Positions 54,887-63,955 of a stretch of 64,000 nt of DNA are shown one piece after another. Made by a program: the position numbers and the translations under genes. The stretch lies in the sequence record OZ346212.1; one strand, 5' to 3'. The stretch comes from a phage. How positions within the stretch are numbered: the stretch's first letter is position 1; each line of letters opens with the position of its first letter. The notes under the pieces were generated by a model. That model worked only from the letters and a program-made list of their open reading frames with translations, did not search any database and had not been told where the DNA came from.

Positions 54887-56170
54887 TCATTCAAGCACCT
54901 CCCAAGTGTCTGGGTTAACATTTCGGACGCAGATACCGACAGGGAATTGGTAATTGTTGTCTTCTGTCCTTGCTTGGTATTTGAAGGTGACAAACTTGCC
55001 GATCATTTCCTGCATCCTGTCATAGCTACGCTCCTCGTGCGTGCCTTTCATCTTCATTTTAACAACAACACCTTCCTTGTCAACACAGATAAGAACACCT
55101 TCATCATTCTTATCTTTCTCAACGTCAATAACTTTCACCTCTGCGTCGTTGAACTTTTTCCATTTCAATGCTTCAGATGTTCGCTGACCATACTCATATT
55201 TACCGCAGAAATTACGCATGATAGTACCTTCATATCCTTCGGACATGAATATACCAACAGATTCTTCGCAATGATCAACTGTGTACGCAAGCTCTGCGTC
55301 AACAACCTTGATATGATCAAGCATCAGAGTGGTAACGGTATCCTCTGCATCCATAAGATCCTTGCAGCGTCCAGACTCTGTTTCTGGATCCCACCACACC
55401 TTGTCGCTAGGAATATCAAAAATGTGATACTCCAGATCGTAGCTACAGTATCCACCGTAACGCAAATCATCACGAACAGGCTCAACATCGACAGGAATAT
55501 CTACCTTGTTGAAGTTTTTGTATGTTGATAAGCCTGCCTTAATTGCTGCATGACGGCGTTTTTTATCTGCCTCATAGTCTTTATCGATCTCGGCCTGAAT
55601 CTCTTCCTGTGTGCGCCACCGTTTAGCAAGAGACACTATTTTCTGCAAAGGAAGACCATGAATGTATAGTTCCCCATCAAGTTGTTTAATCCCAGTGGTA
55701 GAATGGAAAGAACGAAGTTGCTCTAAAAGCTTTCCTTGAATAGGGTAGGACTTATTACCACGGGAAATAAATTTAGGCTCACCATTTTGGAAAACAACAA
55801 GCAGACGAAGGCCATCTAACTTACGCAAGATCCAGCAAGGTAATTTAAGTGCCTTGCCACGCTTCAGGTAGTCATGCACCAGCATAGGTAAAAGATCAAC
55901 ACCCTGCTCGCAATCTTCCATGTTTTCAACATACCCCAGACGGACTTGTTTTTCCCACTTGCTGATAGCCTCAAGCTCGGCCTGTTGCTCAGCTGTAGTC
56001 TCGTTGGCACGACCTACGTTTTTAGGTGTACATACCGTCTCTTTGTACTGCAATTTACCGTCAAGCTTGCCAAACTCTACGATAACCTTTTCGCCATCAG
56101 TGAATACTTTCCACTGTTGGTAGCTGCCATCTTTGTTCAGTGCGTACAGTGTTGTTTTGATTTGATGCAT
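54887..56170 (-). CDS. ATP-dependent DNA ligase
   Basis: Motif I RKLDGLR, motif IV EGTIMR, motif V LKWKKF. Confidence 0.8.
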   Translation of the reverse strand: MHQIKTTLYALNKDGSYQQWKVFTDGEKVIVEFGKLDGKLQYKETVCTPKNVGRANETTAEQQAELEAISKWEKQVRLGYVENMEDCEQGVDLLPMLVHDYLKRGKALKLPCWILRKLDGLRLLVVFQNGEPKFISRGNKSYPIQGKLLEQLRSFHSTTGIKQLDGELYIHGLPLQKIVSLAKRWRTQEEIQAEIDKDYEADKKRRHAAIKAGLSTYKNFNKVDIPVDVEPVRDDLRYGGYCSYDLEYHIFDIPSDKVWWDPETESGRCKDLMDAEDTVTTLMLDHIKVVDAELAYTVDHCEESVGIFMSEGYEGTIMRNFCGKYEYGQRTSEALKWKKFNDAEVKVIDVEKDKNDEGVLICVDKEGVVVKMKMKGTHEERSYDRMQEMIGKFVTFKYQARTEDNNYQFPVGICVRNVNPDTWEVLE

Positions 56171-56439
56171 TACTCGGCCTCTTCCTTAAAAATTTTAAAC
56201 ATCTCTTCTTTACTCATTACCAACCAGTCTCCCATAAAGTCAACTAACCAATCTCCCTGGTACAAAACCAAGTTGCCAAACGGCTCAACAAGCTCACACA
56301 TGCGACGAATATCTCTGGTCCGAACAGGTGACGATGTAAACACACCTGTATCAATCCACCGTTGCAGATCAGATACTGATGAAGAGCTTCCATCAAACTG
56401 GTGTGCTTCTACAGGTTTAGCAAGATTAAATAACGGCAT
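56170..56439 (-). CDS. hypothetical protein
   Basis: ORF track. Confidence 0.45.
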   Translation of the reverse strand: MPLFNLAKPVEAHQFDGSSSSVSDLQRWIDTGVFTSSPVRTRDIRRMCELVEPFGNLVLYQGDWLVDFMGDWLVMSKEEMFKIFKEEAE

Positions 56440-56734: not shown

Positions 56735-56796
56735 AACTAACTACCTCACTGCATACTTTCCATAATAAGTAAAGCCGGGTAATCCCGGCTATGTTG

Positions 56797-57510
56797 TTAA
56801 ATATACTCTGTTACATCCTTGAAGCTCGAAGGCTTCATAATCTTACCTTTACTGTCAAGGAATATAATAACTTTATTACCGTTGTAGAACTCCTCTTTAG
56901 CAACGAAACCTTCGTAGCGACCACCAAAACGACGCTCAAGATCTTCAATCTCTAACTCTATGAGCAATTCAGTAGACATATCTGCACTGGCACCGTGAGA
57001 ATATCGTAGATGGTTGATCCGTGCAAACTTGCTGTCATTAGATTTGAGAACCTTCCGCATCATCCCACACACATCGCCGCGAAGCTGGAACAGCAAAGCT
57101 GTTGACAACTCCGCTAAGCGGTAAGCTGACGCTCTTTGCTTGGATGTGTTTTTCGCAGCGATCAGTGTATCATAGAACTCACCGATCTTGAACTTAAGAC
57201 CTCGTGGATTATCAAACAGGTTTGACCACTTTTCGTGATTATCATTAACAAGATAAGCGGCATAACTTGTGACAACGTGAAGATCGCAGGCCTCTTTTAG
57301 CAGGTGATCTCCACCATCACCTTTCTCCAGCTCTTCCAAAACCTCATTGAACTCTTCCTCAATGAAGCTAAGCTGTAATTCGAATGGTGTGTATGATTTT
57401 TTCACTTTAGCTGCCACACGGTTCCAGTTTTCCACCCAGTTGGCAGACCAAAGGTAGTTTTCAGGCTGAGACAGTTTTTCCAGGTTGTCGATCAGTTTAG
57501 TATTCAGCAT
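56797..57510 (-). CDS. hypothetical protein, possible MazG-like NTP pyrophosphohydrolase
   Basis: EEEFNEVLEELEKGD...LLKEACD; weak. Confidence 0.5.
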   Translation of the reverse strand: MLNTKLIDNLEKLSQPENYLWSANWVENWNRVAAKVKKSYTPFELQLSFIEEEFNEVLEELEKGDGGDHLLKEACDLHVVTSYAAYLVNDNHEKWSNLFDNPRGLKFKIGEFYDTLIAAKNTSKQRASAYRLAELSTALLFQLRGDVCGMMRKVLKSNDSKFARINHLRYSHGASADMSTELLIELEIEDLERRFGGRYEGFVAKEEFYNGNKVIIFLDSKGKIMKPSSFKDVTEYI

Positions 57511-57523
57511 TAAAGGTCTCCTT

Positions 57524-58285
57524 TTAAAGTTCCATAAAGTTTTCTACAGTTTCAATAAATGCTTTATCAGAGAAAGCGTCAACAGCACCGTTAAACCATA
57601 CAGGGATCCCGCGATCCTCATATTGATAAAGGTCGCTACGTGAAATGCCACTCCCATCTGCACTCTGCGAGTCATACTTGTTTACAATCAGCAGTTTTGT
57701 GCCTTTACAAGTAGCAGGAAACAATTCCCAGTTAAAATTAATAACTGTGTTAGAACAACCTACTAGGATCACCATATCATTGCTTGTGAGAGATGTCAAC
57801 AGGTCATACATGTCTGTATACTTAGGAGCAACCTCACCGAAGAACACTACATTGGGCTTAACCCAGGTATACTTGCCTGTATCTACCTCCGTGTATCCGA
57901 TATTTTTAATTACATCATTACCTTCAGCATCTTCGTAGGTGATTTCAGGCAAATACCCGTGGACATGTAAAATATCTTCATGTTTTACACCAGCACGCTC
58001 CAGCAAATCATCTACATTGGTGGTAAGGTTGATCACACGACCAGACCAGCGGGAATACCACTCAGCGATCCGAAGATGTGCAAGGTTAGGATCAACACTG
58101 CCCAGAGCTACACGACGTGCATTGTAAAAGTCATGCACCTTATAGTAGTTCTTGGCAAAGGTGTGGATGTTGCACACCTCATCGATGCTGAAATTCTCCC
58201 ACATTGCAGTGCTACCAGATCGGAAAGTGGGAATACCAGATTCAGCGCTCAAACCAGCACCGGAGATAATAATCAGTCGTCGCAT
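57524..58285 (-). CDS. Sir2-family (sirtuin-like) NAD-dependent protein
   Basis: N-terminal GAGLSAESGIPTFRSGSTAMW matches sirtuin GAGIS..SGIP.FR. Confidence 0.75.
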   Translation of the reverse strand: MRRLIIISGAGLSAESGIPTFRSGSTAMWENFSIDEVCNIHTFAKNYYKVHDFYNARRVALGSVDPNLAHLRIAEWYSRWSGRVINLTTNVDDLLERAGVKHEDILHVHGYLPEITYEDAEGNDVIKNIGYTEVDTGKYTWVKPNVVFFGEVAPKYTDMYDLLTSLTSNDMVILVGCSNTVINFNWELFPATCKGTKLLIVNKYDSQSADGSGISRSDLYQYEDRGIPVWFNGAVDAFSDKAFIETVENFMEL

Positions 58286-58293
58286 AAGTGTCC

Positions 58294-58644
58294 TCAGTAG
58301 ATGTTTTGTTTAATCTCTATTCCAAACTTCTTGAATGAGTCAGCAGCAAGCATAAATTTACGAGCTGCCGATGGATTAGAAGTATGCACGAAAATAATCA
58401 CGTTGTCAATAAGTGGTGGCTTTCCGAATACAAGTTTCTCCTCTAGCGCAGAGAAGCAGTCGTACCCTTCAAGCACTTCACCTAGATCATTGTCAAAATA
58501 CCACTCAGATACGCGTCTGTAGAGCTTTCTCTTATCATTAAGAAAATCCATAAACTCAGAAGAATTCTTTAGCCACAGAGCGTCTGGGAGTCCATAATCT
58601 GACGGATCTCTAAAATCATCAAGCCACACAATCCACTTCTTCAT
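58294..58644 (-). CDS. hypothetical protein
   Basis: ORF track. Confidence 0.5.
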   Translation of the reverse strand: MKKWIVWLDDFRDPSDYGLPDALWLKNSSEFMDFLNDKRKLYRRVSEWYFDNDLGEVLEGYDCFSALEEKLVFGKPPLIDNVIIFVHTSNPSAARKFMLAADSFKKFGIEIKQNIY

Positions 58645-59576
58645 TGCATATAGTCCTCGTTGTGGAAATAGTAGTCCAGTATCTCACGACGCTCCTGCTC
58701 TAATAAGCAATTCCACACATCTTCTGTATAGTTGCTACGAATAAATTTTACCATACCGTAAAACTCTTCGTCAACACGTTTAAAGATATCATCATCCCAA
58801 ATCTTCCAAGCTTTACCCCTCATTACTGCCTTCCGTGCCAGATAGTATGGAGACTTGATCTTCAGCTGCAGATCATAAGGGTAGTAAGGCTTACGAATCA
58901 TATACCCTTCACCTCTTGTTTCTGCAGCTAATTCTTTTGCATAGCTGAACGGAATTTCACGCACAGTGTTAGGACGTTTTGCACCAAGGTATTTGGCAAT
59001 CCCATCTAAAGCTGCTTCTGGTAGCATTATTCCAGAATCATTATATCTGCAACCTATCAAATATGCGCCATGGTCTTCTTGAACAATATGCGGATCTGAA
59101 GGGTGACAAATTTCAAACATGAATGTCATGTTTTCATTGCCCATAACCTTCTTGATAAGATCTAAATTACCACATTGCTCTTGGATGGTTTCCTTTGCAA
59201 GGTTACAATATGGAGAATCAAGAGACCCGGTTGTTGAGAACAATAGGTCACCTTTATGAGATGATACCACACCAAGGAATCCGTTCTTTTTCTCTACCGC
59301 AGTCACAAGCTTATTGTCAGGCAGGTTGGTGGAGTTTTCTCCCAAGTTAAACACTTTTGTGAAGGGCCATGCCACAACATTTCCTTCATTACCTACAACA
59401 ATGCCTCGGCACTCCAGTAAACGAGGGGACAAATGCCATAAATTGTTGTAAAATACTTTTCTAGCATATTTATAGATCTTTAACCCGAGATCTGGGTAAT
59501 ACCTACTGGTTACAAGACCTTTGTCAACTAGGTCGTCTGCATTAAAATACTTCATTATATGTTCCTCATTTGTCAT
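58641..59576 (-). CDS. RNA ligase (nucleotidyltransferase superfamily)
   Basis: Motif I VEKKNGF (KxNG), motif IV EGYMIRK, motif V LKIKSPYY; alternative start at 59555 has the better RBS. Confidence 0.6.
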   Translation of the reverse strand: MTNEEHIMKYFNADDLVDKGLVTSRYYPDLGLKIYKYARKVFYNNLWHLSPRLLECRGIVVGNEGNVVAWPFTKVFNLGENSTNLPDNKLVTAVEKKNGFLGVVSSHKGDLLFSTTGSLDSPYCNLAKETIQEQCGNLDLIKKVMGNENMTFMFEICHPSDPHIVQEDHGAYLIGCRYNDSGIMLPEAALDGIAKYLGAKRPNTVREIPFSYAKELAAETRGEGYMIRKPYYPYDLQLKIKSPYYLARKAVMRGKAWKIWDDDIFKRVDEEFYGMVKFIRSNYTEDVWNCLLEQERREILDYYFHNEDYMQ

Positions 59577-59619
59577 TTTGTCAGTCTATCCTGCCACACA
59601 AATAACCTAGTGTCAACAC

Positions 59620-59648
59620 TTGAAATTAACAAAACAGTTAGGTATACT
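59620..59648 (+). promoter_or_regulatory. sigma70-like promoter (TTGAAA-N17-TATACT)
   Basis: In the divergent intergenic region. Confidence 0.5.
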
Positions 59649-59676
59649 ACCGTTGAAATTAAAACGGAGGGTCGCT

Positions 59677-60087
59677 ATGTCTAAAATGCTATATATCGTG
59701 CGTGGTCTACCAGGGTCTGGCAAATCAACACTGGCAAATGAGCTATCTTTAGAGGGTCTGTATCCACATTTTGAGAACGACATGTTCTGGTATGACGATG
59801 ACGGCAATTACAACTGGGATGCAAGTAAAGTAACACTCGCAGCAAAATGGTGCAAAGATAACGTAGAAGATATGATGCGTATGGGATACGACCGTATCGT
59901 GGTAAGTAATACGTTTACAAAAGAAAAACATGTGCAGGAATATGTTGACATGGCAATCACTCACGGGTATAGTTATACCGTGATCGTGGTTGAAAACCGC
60001 CACGGTAATAAAAGCATTCATGATGTTCCAGACAAGGTTGTGGATCGTATGGAACGCCAGCTTAAAAACTGCATTAAACTTAAATGA
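59677..60087 (+). CDS. polynucleotide kinase-like P-loop kinase
   Basis: MLYIVRGLPGSGKSTLA (cf. T4 Pnk GCPGSGKST); start moved to ATG 59677 after RBS ACGGAGGG. Confidence 0.65.
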   Translation: MSKMLYIVRGLPGSGKSTLANELSLEGLYPHFENDMFWYDDDGNYNWDASKVTLAAKWCKDNVEDMMRMGYDRIVVSNTFTKEKHVQEYVDMAITHGYSYTVIVVENRHGNKSIHDVPDKVVDRMERQLKNCIKLK

Positions 60088-60094
60088 GGAATGT

Positions 60095-60649
60095 ATGAAA
60101 TACTTTGTAACAAGCGACACACACTTTCTCCACCAGCGGGTCATGGAGTTTGATTCATGTCAAAAACACAGATCTCAGTATGATCACAATCTTGACAGTA
60201 TGAATGCAGGAATCATCGCCGAGTGGAACTCTGTTGTGTCACCTGCAGACACTGTGTTCCACTTGGGAGATATTGCGTGCACTAATGATAAGAATATCAA
60301 CAACTTACTTCCAGATATTCTAAATATGTTGAACGGACATATTATTCTTGTTCGTGGCAACCATGACACAAGGACGACTGTCAGAATTATGAAAGAGTTC
60401 GGTCATGAGGTTGTAGATTATTACGAGCTTCGCCACAACAAGAATTTGATCTGTATGAGCCATTACCAGTTTGCAAAGTGGAACAGAAAGCCTCACGGAT
60501 CAGTCCAACTGTTCGGTCATGCTCACGGAACCACACAACAGTTGTTTGGCAGGCAGCTTGATGTCGGTTGGGATGTGTGGGGGAGACTCTTACCATTAGA
60601 AGAGGCATACCGTATTGCAATGAGTTTTGATATTGACAGCAGGGAGTAA
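60095..60649 (+). CDS. calcineurin-like metallophosphoesterase
   Basis: DTHF, GDIACT, VRGNHD, GHAHG motifs; start moved to ATG 60095. Confidence 0.8.
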   Translation: MKYFVTSDTHFLHQRVMEFDSCQKHRSQYDHNLDSMNAGIIAEWNSVVSPADTVFHLGDIACTNDKNINNLLPDILNMLNGHIILVRGNHDTRTTVRIMKEFGHEVVDYYELRHNKNLICMSHYQFAKWNRKPHGSVQLFGHAHGTTQQLFGRQLDVGWDVWGRLLPLEEAYRIAMSFDIDSRE

Positions 60650-60696: not shown

Positions 60697-61047
60697 ATGA
60701 AAGATGGGGATAAGCTGCTATATCTTAAAGTCCCCCTTGAAATACTATCTATGTCAAAAGTTTTGAATGACACAACTGGGGAGGTTGTTGTTCTTGACTT
60801 GTATGACAAGATCGTATACTGCTACCTGCACAACTGGTATAAGCTTGGAGGAAATTCACGCTTCACACCAAGCACAAGGAAAATTGCAGCAGATGTTGGG
60901 ATAAAGAAAACAAAAGCAGCAGCGTGCGTTAAAACTTTAGAATGTGCAGGAGTGGTTGAAACATCCACACAAGGGAGAGGTAAAAGATGCACATTTTCCA
61001 AAGTTTTGCCACCAGAAGAAGTTATTCGGATGTCAACAACTGGTTAG
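60697..61047 (+). CDS. HTH DNA-binding protein (possible initiator/regulator)
   Basis: RBS AAGGAGA; helix-turn-helix-like STRKIAADVGIKKTKAAACVKTLECAGVVE. Confidence 0.5.
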   Translation: MKDGDKLLYLKVPLEILSMSKVLNDTTGEVVVLDLYDKIVYCYLHNWYKLGGNSRFTPSTRKIAADVGIKKTKAAACVKTLECAGVVETSTQGRGKRCTFSKVLPPEEVIRMSTTG

Positions 61048-61122
61048 ACCAGTAAAAACTTAAATATCTGTACTATAAGGATTCGTATGTTTTATGTTCG
61101 CCATGGAACGGATACTATTAAC

Positions 61123-61203
61123 TGTCCGTGATACGGACACTACTGTCCGTCACGCGGACACATCTGCCCGTAATACGGACACTAACTGTCCGTGATACGG
61201 ACA
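61123..61203. promoter_or_regulatory. array of four 17-bp palindromic sites (TGTCCGTgatACGGACA) at 21-22 bp phasing
   Basis: Sites at 61123, 61144, 61165, 61187; followed by a ~120-bp AT-rich tract. Confidence 0.65.
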
Positions 61204-61329
61204 CATAAAGAATATAACTAAAATAACTAAATAATAAAAAATAAAAGATCTAGTACTTATGGTACTAAGTACATATACTTAACTTATGTAGAATATACTA
61301 GATCCTAAGTACCATGTTTTAAATTTATT

Positions 61330-63584: not shown

Positions 63585-63659
63585 GCCCTGTTAGCTTAGT
63601 GGATAAAGCAGCGGCCTTCTAAGCCGTTGACACTGGTTCGAGTCCAGTACGGGGTGCCA
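63585..63659 (+). tRNA. tRNA-Arg (anticodon TCT)
   Basis: Cloverleaf folded by hand: acceptor GCCCTGT/ACGGGGT, D-stem GCTT/AAGC, anticodon loop CTTCTAA, T-loop TTCGAGT, encoded CCA. Confidence 0.8.
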
Positions 63660-63663
63660 AATT

Positions 63664-63750
63664 GGGGAGTTATCCCGTAGAGGTAGCGGTGTAGACTGTA
63701 AATCTATTGTCATTGCGACTCGGGTGGTTCGACTCCACCACTCCCCACCA
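63664..63750 (+). tRNA. tRNA-Tyr (anticodon GTA)
   Basis: Acceptor GGGGAGT/ACTCCCC, anticodon loop CTGTAAA, long variable arm, T-loop TTCGACT, encoded CCA. Confidence 0.8.
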
Positions 63751-63864
63751 AATTTATATTTTTAGATGCATAAATAATACAGATAATGGCATTGATATTT
63801 ATCGTCGTTTATACTAGTCACTAACTGCTCGAAAATCAGTGTCATTATCAGTATTATTTATAAA

Positions 63865-63955
63865 GGAGGGTAGGGAGCAATGGTGCTCAATCGGTCTTGA
63901 AAACCGTCCCGTTGAGGATGACTCGATGATGGTTCGATTCCATTACTCTCCGCCA
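63865..63955 (+). tRNA. tRNA-Ser (anticodon TGA)
   Basis: Acceptor GGAGGGT/ACTCTCC, anticodon loop CTTGAAA, long variable arm, T-loop TTCGATT, encoded CCA. Confidence 0.7.

Follow-up and report, generated by a model that had tools for sequence, protein, structure and literature searches.

What does a sirtuin do among the RNA-repair genes of a phage? The question is raised by a Sir2-family gene at positions 57524 to 58285 of a 64,000-nucleotide stretch of phage DNA (sequence record OZ346212.1; the whole stretch is called the window below), for whose product an initial annotation had suggested deacylation, ADP-ribosylation, or consumption of NAD. The limits of the gene given there stood, but they have to be read on the minus strand: the open reading frame (ORF) running from 58285 to 57524 encodes 253 amino acids (aa) and begins with MRRLIIISGAGLSAESGIPTFRSGSTAMW, while the plus-strand translation is riddled with stop codons. 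A GAGGA Shine-Dalgarno sequence lies 5' of the start and overlaps the stop codon of the upstream gene, which codes for a cREC (cyclic-phosphate-processing Receiver-like) protein. From ORF, Pfam, PHROG, AlphaFold2, and Foldseek analyses, we assign the product to a zinc-ribbon-less, CobB/SIRT5-like clade of sirtuins.

Sequence and fold of the Sir2 protein

The gene product is a Sir2-family protein, as had been proposed, and the match is far beyond chance. Residues 9 to 181 matched the Pfam entry SIR2 (PF02146; E value of 6.9e-28, 98.2 bits against a cutoff of 24 bits), the protein matched PHROG 2162 "Sir2" (E value of 1.5e-108), and the closest solved structures by sequence were E. coli CobB (1s5p; E value of 3e-21), SIRT5 (E value of 6e-21), and Sir2Af1. 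An AlphaFold2 model computed with 30 homologues as input adopted a confident two-domain sirtuin fold (predicted local distance difference test score, 90.1; predicted template modeling score, 0.88). Foldseek placed this model closest to CobB (E value of 8.5e-18; template modeling [TM] scores of 0.73 to 0.84), then to Sir2Af1 and SIRT5, and the best 50 matches listed were canonical sirtuins throughout (CobB, Sir2Af1, SIRT5, SIRT2, and Sir2Tm).

We then examined conservation in an alignment of 120 homologues having 46 to 93% identity to the phage protein. The sirtuin NAD-binding motif noticed at the N terminus corresponds to G9-A-G11, S13, S16-G17, and F21-R22 (the last pair in the cofactor loop), all of them invariant or nearly so. 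The same degree of conservation was found for P66-N67, H70, T89-N90-V91-D92, H109-G110, K143-P-N145, F148-F149-G-E151, G176-x-S178, and N202. The catalytic His, whose presence had been left to an alignment, is H109 ("LHVHG," aligned with "IHMHG" of CobB), and the Sir2 assignment survives this check because H109 is both present and invariant. Judging from these residues, the protein is apparently catalytically competent, predicted to bind NAD+, release nicotinamide, and pass ADP-ribose to an oxygen nucleophile; the proposal that His109 would activate the ribose 2''-OH is likewise well supported. A further (near-)invariant segment, F53-Y54-N-x-R57-R58, aligns with FYNARR of CobB and with Y102/R105 of SIRT5, which form the anion-binding YxxR motif of class III. 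The GAGxSxxSG, FR, N/D, HG, FGE, GxS, and YxxR motifs are thus common to the phage protein and to CobB and SIRT5, the class III lysine deacylases.

The differences from CobB and SIRT5 lie elsewhere. The initial annotation had found no obvious CxxC pair, and there is none: only three Cys residues occur in the protein (C38, C177, and C193), and the 32-residue segment from 111 to 142, between the HG motif and the KPNVVFFGE strand, is free of Cys in the phage protein as in the 120 homologues. This segment replaces the four-Cys zinc module, and AlphaFold2 confidently modeled a beta-hairpin in place of the zinc ribbon (E110-118 and E124-128). In addition, the Gln of the TQNID motif is replaced by Thr89, which is invariant in the close clade and is Thr, Ser, or Ala in the wider clade. 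We compared the two regions in 80 cellular and 76 viral loci. Clade members had T[TSA]N(V/I)D, or TANVS in KVP40-like phages, with 0 to 2 Cys in the zinc module, whereas all outgroup cellular sirtuins examined (58/58) had TQN(I/V)D with 3 to 5 Cys, so that loss of the zinc ribbon coincides across the clade with replacement of Gln by Thr, Ser, or Ala. As a side observation, one relative combines features of both groups: the protein of a Paracoccus sp. ME4 plasmid (locus L100, 7923-8738; 46% identical) has the C38 and YNxR of the clade, yet also TQNID and 5 Cys in the module, and may be an intermediate form.

Other invariants specific to the clade are C38, Y47, A153-P154-x-Y156 directly after FGE (FFGExAPxY), N179, I182, and F184, which by homology would fall in the peptide-substrate-binding loops of CobB and SIRT5. 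The alignments therefore depict a clade remodeled exactly in the substrate-binding small domain, through loss of the zinc ribbon, the Gln-to-Thr/Ser change, and new invariants. The phage protein also stays well below the NCBIfam CobB equivalog cutoffs (NF001753, 122.6 versus 243 bits; NF040867 CobB, 104 versus 320). From these features we regard the phage-centered, zinc-free group as a sister clade of CobB/SIRT5. The Sir2/CobB proteins of KVP40-like Vibrio phages belong to the same zinc-less clade (41 to 45% identity), and their missing zinc ligands were already noted by Skliros et al. in 2016 (PMC5107563). They differ from the protein studied here in having TANVS in place of TTNVD and no RNA-repair genes within ±6 genes. 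A separate observation concerns the same motif, in which the otherwise invariant Asp92 is replaced by Ser (loci L061 and L063).

Gene neighborhood and distribution of the clade

The initial annotation had rightly placed a MazG-like gene and an RNA ligase gene around sir2, but it took the RNA-repair genes for mere flanks; sir2 is embedded between them in what the gene spacing indicates is a tight four-gene transcription unit, Rnl1-cREC-Sir2-MazG-like. The minus-strand unit is led by an Rnl1-family (T4 RnlA-like) RNA ligase gene (58641 to 59576, minus strand; Pfam RNA_lig_T4_1, E value of 1e-14; PHROG 562, E value of 2e-65), the start of which is placed at 59558 or 59555 in GenBank records. The cREC gene (58294 to 58644, minus strand; 116 aa; Pfam cREC_REC, PF20274, E value of 9e-14; PHROG 1479) overlaps the ligase stop by 4 nucleotides (nt) with its start, and its own stop lies 8 nt ahead of the sir2 ATG. 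A 13-nt gap containing an AAGGAG Shine-Dalgarno sequence separates the sir2 stop from the last gene, which encodes a 237-aa protein like the all-alpha nucleoside triphosphate (NTP) pyrophosphohydrolases of the MazG type (56797 to 57510, minus strand; PHROG 671, E value of 6e-22). The GC-rich hairpin AGCCGGG-ATTA-CCCGGCT with a T-rich tail, found in a scan for terminator-like sites (56773 to 56790, minus strand), begins 6 nt past the stop of this gene and is likely the terminator of the unit, as a consensus match only; terminator-like sites are in total no more frequent in the region than expected from shuffling.

The neighborhood is not new. Iyer, Burroughs, Anantharaman, and Aravind described it in 2022 with phage V5 as the prototype (Viruses 14:1977; PMC9503650, section 3.7.3), and our locus corresponds to their neighborhood type 2, for which Escherichia phage V5 and Proteus phage Mydo are the prototypes; gene and genus are the same, and the locus shows no difference. 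The complete type 2 set is found within 56797-60649: sirtuin, T4-like RNA ligase, cREC, nucleotide kinase, MazG-like protein, and calcineurin-like phosphoesterase, with no Macro domain. Two genes of this set lie on the plus strand, divergent from the ligase gene, and encode a P-loop polynucleotide-kinase-like protein (59677 to 60087, from the annotated start; Pfam AAA_33, E value of 1e-10; PHROG 2071 and PHROG 505 "polynucleotide kinase") and a calcineurin-like metallophosphoesterase (60095 to 60649; Pfam Metallophos_2/Metallophos; PHROG 547, E value of 2e-52). The latter is homologous to the phosphoesterase adjoining Rnl1 in phages PAK_P1 and PD06 and is a candidate phosphatase or cyclic phosphodiesterase for healing RNA 3' ends.

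We then looked into the distribution of the clade, which was present in 976 of 50,697 phage records, including those of Vequintavirinae, T5-like Demerecviridae (as T5.102 in T5 itself), PVP-SE1/Mydo-like and phi92-like phages, phage 7-11, KVP40-like phages, and 350-kb jumbo phages. Gene context was surveyed in 76 IMG/VR loci and two GenBank Vequintavirus loci, which fell into 29 Sir2 clusters at 80% identity, by ±6-gene clustering backed by a ±10-kb jackhmmer search. A pooled Pfam scan of 102 neighbor proteins was read from its best 25 families listed, and the Nudix and cREC genes of phages SHEFM2K and 7t3 were found by targeted scans. In 6 of the 29 clusters, homologues of several genes from the set MazG-like, cREC, Rnl1, kinase, phosphoesterase, and DNA ligase were nearby. 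In PVP-SE1/Mydo-like and further phages, the genes are reordered but stay within ∼5 kb, although identity to our Sir2 is as low as 44 to 56% there. In jumbo phage SHEFM2K, a zinc-less Sir2 gene (39% identical, with a TSN motif) is followed contiguously by a Nudt16-like Nudix gene and a cREC_REC gene; in phage 7t3, a single ORF separates Sir2 from a Nudt16-like Nudix protein, and NMNAT and NAMPT genes lie 3.5 kb upstream. In T5, sir2 shares a promoter-terminator unit with a gene three positions downstream, T5.105, for a HAD_SAK_2 "Swiss-army-knife RNA repair" phosphatase.

The recurrent core is hence Sir2, cREC, and a pyrophosphatase, the latter drawn from two unrelated folds (MazG-like or Nudix). 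The replacement of the MazG-like protein by a nonhomologous Nudix enzyme speaks for a functional coupling of the three proteins in one metabolite stream and is the best contextual argument that we can offer. This core, the cellular stand-alone members, and the lack of a ligase link in most clade members are what our survey adds to Iyer et al. (2022).

RNA ends, acyl-lysine, or NAD+ as the target

What the active site acts upon can be approached from the neighborhood, which is the basis of the published prediction. Iyer et al. proposed that a "distinct clade of sirtuins" is KptA-like and removes 2'-phosphates left by the processing of RNA termini that bear a 2',3'-cyclic phosphate, and that the 2H, cREC, HAD, calcineurin-like, or Nudix enzymes encoded alongside serve either to open the cyclic end or to handle the ADPr>P formed as a by-product (PMC9503650); the cREC domain itself had been defined, and its function predicted only, in a 2021 jumbo-phage paper of the same group (PMC7824862). 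We tentatively favor a version of this idea, at somewhat less than even probability, in which Sir2 is the accessory NAD+-consuming step of a phage cassette for the repair of tRNA or RNA breaks, with an RNA phosphate as the acceptor. In such a scheme, an anionic phosphate oxygen on damaged or religated RNA (the 2'-phosphate, as with Tpt1/KptA) would attack C1'' of NAD+, nicotinamide would leave, and the 2''-OH would then attack the electrophilic center. The Tyr/Arg pair of the YxxR motif could hold the phosphate, and cREC and the MazG-like or Nudix enzyme would dispose of the ADP-ribose cyclic-phosphate. The three enzymes would supplement a kinase/phosphatase/ligase cassette directed against host immunity that works by tRNA cleavage. 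Stated in full, as a sirtuin that acts on nucleic acid in place of Tpt1/KptA, stripping the 2'-phosphate from a broken or rejoined tRNA or ADP-ribosylating another terminal phosphate, with its by-product cleared by its neighbors, the scheme is possible and carries a little less of our confidence than the accessory role alone.

The sirtuin reaction proceeds in two steps, parallel to that of Tpt1, and we favor an RNA phosphate because of this parallel and because every member of the triad is given a job. The two steps of Tpt1 are described in PMC11417386, and the parallel to sirtuins draws on that source and on PMC9503650. Tpt1/KptA (PF01885) has an ADP-ribosyltransferase fold, in contrast to the Rossmann-fold sirtuin here, in which only SIR2 was detected, so that the phage protein is possibly a functional analogue of Tpt1/KptA at most and not a member of that family. 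Acceptor and products, as well as what cREC and the MazG-like protein do, are inferred here, as is every step beyond an active sirtuin in an RNA-repair operon.

Several observations weigh against a role in RNA repair. T4 Pnkp/Rnl1 and bacterial Pnkp heal and seal RNA without leaving a 2'-phosphate; by analogy with T4, the kinase/metallophosphoesterase/Rnl1 trio would be self-sufficient, and a Tpt1-like step is therefore not obviously needed. PAK_P1-like Pseudomonas phages have this trio alone, beside NAMPT and PRPP synthetase genes, and the annotations within 5 kb of the PAK_P1 ligase include neither Sir2 nor cREC. In most of the clade, Sir2 is found away from a ligase gene; this applies to the T5-like phages, the largest group, which have no ligase or cREC nearby. 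Likewise, the taxon spread of Rnl1 homologues (757 records, including 177 Pseudomonas and 127 Streptomyces phages) is unlike that of Sir2, and only 14 Salmonella-phage records have Rnl1, versus 287 with Sir2. The phi92-like phage PD06 has cREC, phosphoesterase, Rnl1, and kinase genes together and sir2 ∼33 kb away, and Proteus phage Privateer has cREC near an RtcB ligase with no Sir2 annotated within 7 kb. Cellular members point the same way: ∼20 Marinobacterium species, Haliea, and others encode a 41 to 48% identical protein with every signature of the clade, and in Marinobacterium (where high GC content led us to call ORFs with GC3 guidance) the gene stands by itself on the chromosome, surrounded by genes for transporters, oxidoreductases, and cyclic di-GMP proteins, with neighbors varying by species. 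The protein itself has no RNA-binding or other extra domain, is acidic (pI of 4.9; clade median, 5.1), and keeps V91, F149, and V181, the equivalents of residues of the CobB/SIRT5 acyl-lysine tunnel. Moreover, the activity of cREC is itself a prediction, phage auxiliary genes often cluster without a joint function, and in the literature searched we found only two in silico treatments and no biochemical or genetic test of these predictions.

Many of these points speak for a protein lysine deacylase of the ordinary, NAD+-dependent kind, probably a desuccinylase/demalonylase and deacetylase like CobB and SIRT5, that would act on host or phage proteins and merely be colocated with the RNA-repair genes. 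For a protein so close to CobB and SIRT5, this is the reading to be assumed by default. Its targets might include the translation apparatus, metabolic enzymes, or lysine-adenylating ligases, and the pyrophosphatase would clear O-acyl-ADP-ribose. The nearest sequences and structures (CobB, SIRT5, and Sir2Af1, at the TM scores given above) are genuine deacylases, the catalytic and tunnel residues (H109, N90, D92, FGE, and V91/F149/V181) and the class III Y54-x-x-R57 pair are all invariant, and the clade stands alone in most phage lineages as well as on the Marinobacterium and Haliea chromosomes. The zinc-less KVP40-like homologue was also read in this way by Skliros et al. (PMC5107563). Since Sir2 is acidic, as is CobB, and resembles CobB, an acyl-lysine deacylase is nearly as likely as RNA repair, and we hold it with similar reserve. 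Such an enzyme would leave unexplained the repeated tight linkage to cREC and a pyrophosphatase, or to HAD_SAK_2; the host already has its own CobB; the clade falls under the CobB equivalog thresholds, with altered peptide-binding loops; and in a BF-like jumbo-phage subgroup R57 is replaced by Leu (YNTLR), with R58 retained. For this locus, RNA repair is marginally the best account, a small step ahead of deacylation. Among the functions suggested in the initial annotation, deacylation appears the best supported, by the likeness to CobB/SIRT5 and the retained YxxR motif, and a defense-type NADase the least.

An NAD+ glycohydrolase or small-molecule ADP-ribosyl transferase is less probable. It would have cREC and the pyrophosphatase degrade ADP-ribose, for instance to remodel the NAD+/ADP-ribose pool or to disturb NAD-derived immune signaling. 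Sir2 domains without zinc are typical of NADase effectors, the triad partners process nucleotides, and NAD+ salvage genes occur near Sir2 elsewhere (NMNAT and NAMPT in 7t3; AAA_28/NadR-like and NAPRTase among the neighbor matches listed). The defense Sir2 NADases (ThsA, DSR1/2, SIR2-HerA, and SPARSA) likewise combine a Sir2 domain lacking the zinc ribbon with a setting of phage-host conflict. The phage protein differs from them in being phage encoded and a stand-alone 253-aa protein without a sensor or partner domain (SLOG, HerA, pAgo, or TIR), in having a fold nearest to deacylases, and in its RNA-repair neighbors. A PADLOC scan of Sir2, which covers the defense Sir2 models, returned 0 families at an E value of ≤0.01, and no defense effector was among the best 50 fold matches listed, all of which are canonical; for these two reasons we rejected a defense-type Sir2. 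Bulk destruction of NAD+ would harm the phage itself, and no homologue of the salvage enzymes NAMPT or PRPP synthetase was found in the 64-kb window. More improbable still is a mono-ADP-ribosyltransferase that modifies host proteins, like SirTM enzymes or, in effect, T4 Alt/Mod. This activity had been put forward in the initial annotation, and some sirtuins have it (PMC9503650). The closest relatives are deacylases and not SirTM, and the neighbor proteins scanned with Pfam and PHROG include no Macro domain; membership in SirTM was rejected for want of that partner.

We also considered deacetylation of the N-acetyl-aminoacyl-tRNA made by GNAT toxins, protection of the neighboring RNA and DNA ligases from acylation of their catalytic lysines, and a mark of the Hen1 kind that would shield repaired RNA, and we found no support for any of them. 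The "phage Sir2" mentioned in a paper on NARP3 is a different protein; that paper deals with PnuC/NadR-like genes.

Surrounding features, public records, and significance

PDB sequence searches with cREC, and likewise with the Rnl1 ligase, gave no match; the ligase may be T4-like or of a Trl1-like type that requires a 2'-phosphate. The MazG-like protein had no Pfam match, and a PDB search with its single sequence gave nothing useful. Its family, PHROG 671, is one of nucleotide pyrophosphohydrolases, an alignment of six homologues has the pattern EExxE...CD plus SNDSK(F/Y)P, and a profile of the six gave one weak PDB match across EExxE...D, to phosphoribosyl-ATP pyrophosphatase (1yvw; E value of 0.31). 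Iyer et al. place this neighbor in the MazG superfamily (PMC9503650). The protein carries a C-terminal extension of ∼80 residues (∼150 to 237) with invariant E187, E192-x-R194, G197-x-Y199, and G222-K-I-x-K-P-x-x-F230, for which we found no Pfam, NCBIfam, or PDB match.

The minus strand continues with two small ORFs and the genes for an ATP-dependent DNA ligase and an endolysin. An 89-aa ORF between the MazG-like and DNA ligase genes (56170-56439) matched PHROG 14585; its 154-aa relatives in PVP-SE1-like phages (locus L024, 12060-12524) matched PHROG 419 and, weakly, PHROG 4159 "nucleotide pyrophosphohydrolase" (E value of 8.5e-4). On the other side, four tandem 21- to 22-nt repeats (TAACTGTCCGTGATACGGACAC and variants; 61119-61204), each with the palindrome GTCCGT-nnnn-ACGGAC, lie ∼70 nt downstream of a gene for a putative transcriptional regulator (60697-61047), where long ORFs are lacking. 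The array resembles an operator or a set of iterons, and the GenBank record of phage isim has a repeat_region at this place. A tRNA cluster begins at 63585, ∼3.5 kb from the repair genes (63585-63955; Arg-TCT, Tyr-GTA, and Ser-TGA according to ARAGORN), of which Rfam returned the first two (Arg-TCT and Tyr-GTA) at the gathering score. In other phages, NAD+ salvage genes (NAMPT, PRPP synthetase, and NMNAT/Nudix) and tRNA genes are found beside the RNA-repair cassette or Sir2 (PAK_P1, PD06, Privateer, and 7t3; loci L160 to L163, respectively), a clustering that suggests a recurring counterdefense island.

Most of the locus was already on record. The window comes from a Vequintavirus, an rV5-like E. 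coli phage; its segment 56500-60700 matches that of Escherichia phage isim at 100% identity, and 121 of 122 matching phage records, nearly all from rV5-like Vequintavirinae, have at least 90% identity to the region. The gene is known as such, since more than 100 identical or nearly identical phage records bear a Sir2 annotation, under names like "NAD-dependent protein SIR2 family deacetylase," "sirtuin domain NAD-dependent deacetylase," and "cobB." The name has also strayed: several Vequintavirus records call the MazG-like ORF "putative Sir2-like protein," and the T5 RefSeq record names the HAD_SAK_2 phosphatase T5.105 (locus L079, 8589-9095) "Sir2 (NAD-dependent deacetylase)." In PD06, a "MutT/nudix" protein (locus L161, 6848-7399) is a homologue of the metallophosphoesterase, and such misannotations are spreading through public records. 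In addition, ∼20 "Campylobacter phage" records (MG0656xx), mostly unannotated, are 97 to 100% identical to this Vequintavirus region and are probably mislabeled or contaminant assemblies.

The lack of the zinc ligands has thus been noted in print, and the neighborhood and a specific proposal for the mechanism have been published with this genus as prototype. What we add is modest: where the operon begins and ends, the joint occurrence of zinc-ribbon loss and the Gln-to-Thr/Ser change, the triad with its MazG-like/Nudix displacement, the apparent self-sufficiency of the kinase/phosphatase/ligase trio, and the cellular stand-alone members, which temper the reading as RNA repair. The protein is small, well modeled, and easily testable under either reading. 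If it is a zinc-free CobB-like deacylase and nothing else, ∼2% of sequenced phages, by the record count above, bring their own lysine deacylase, which would be of interest for host takeover and unsurprising. Defenses that target tRNA are known to exert strong pressure on T5- and rV5-like phages. Should the RNA-repair prediction be true, this would be the first sirtuin shown to act on RNA, a convergent replacement of Tpt1, and a new enzymatic layer of phage counterdefense against anticodon nucleases and other tRNA-targeting systems.

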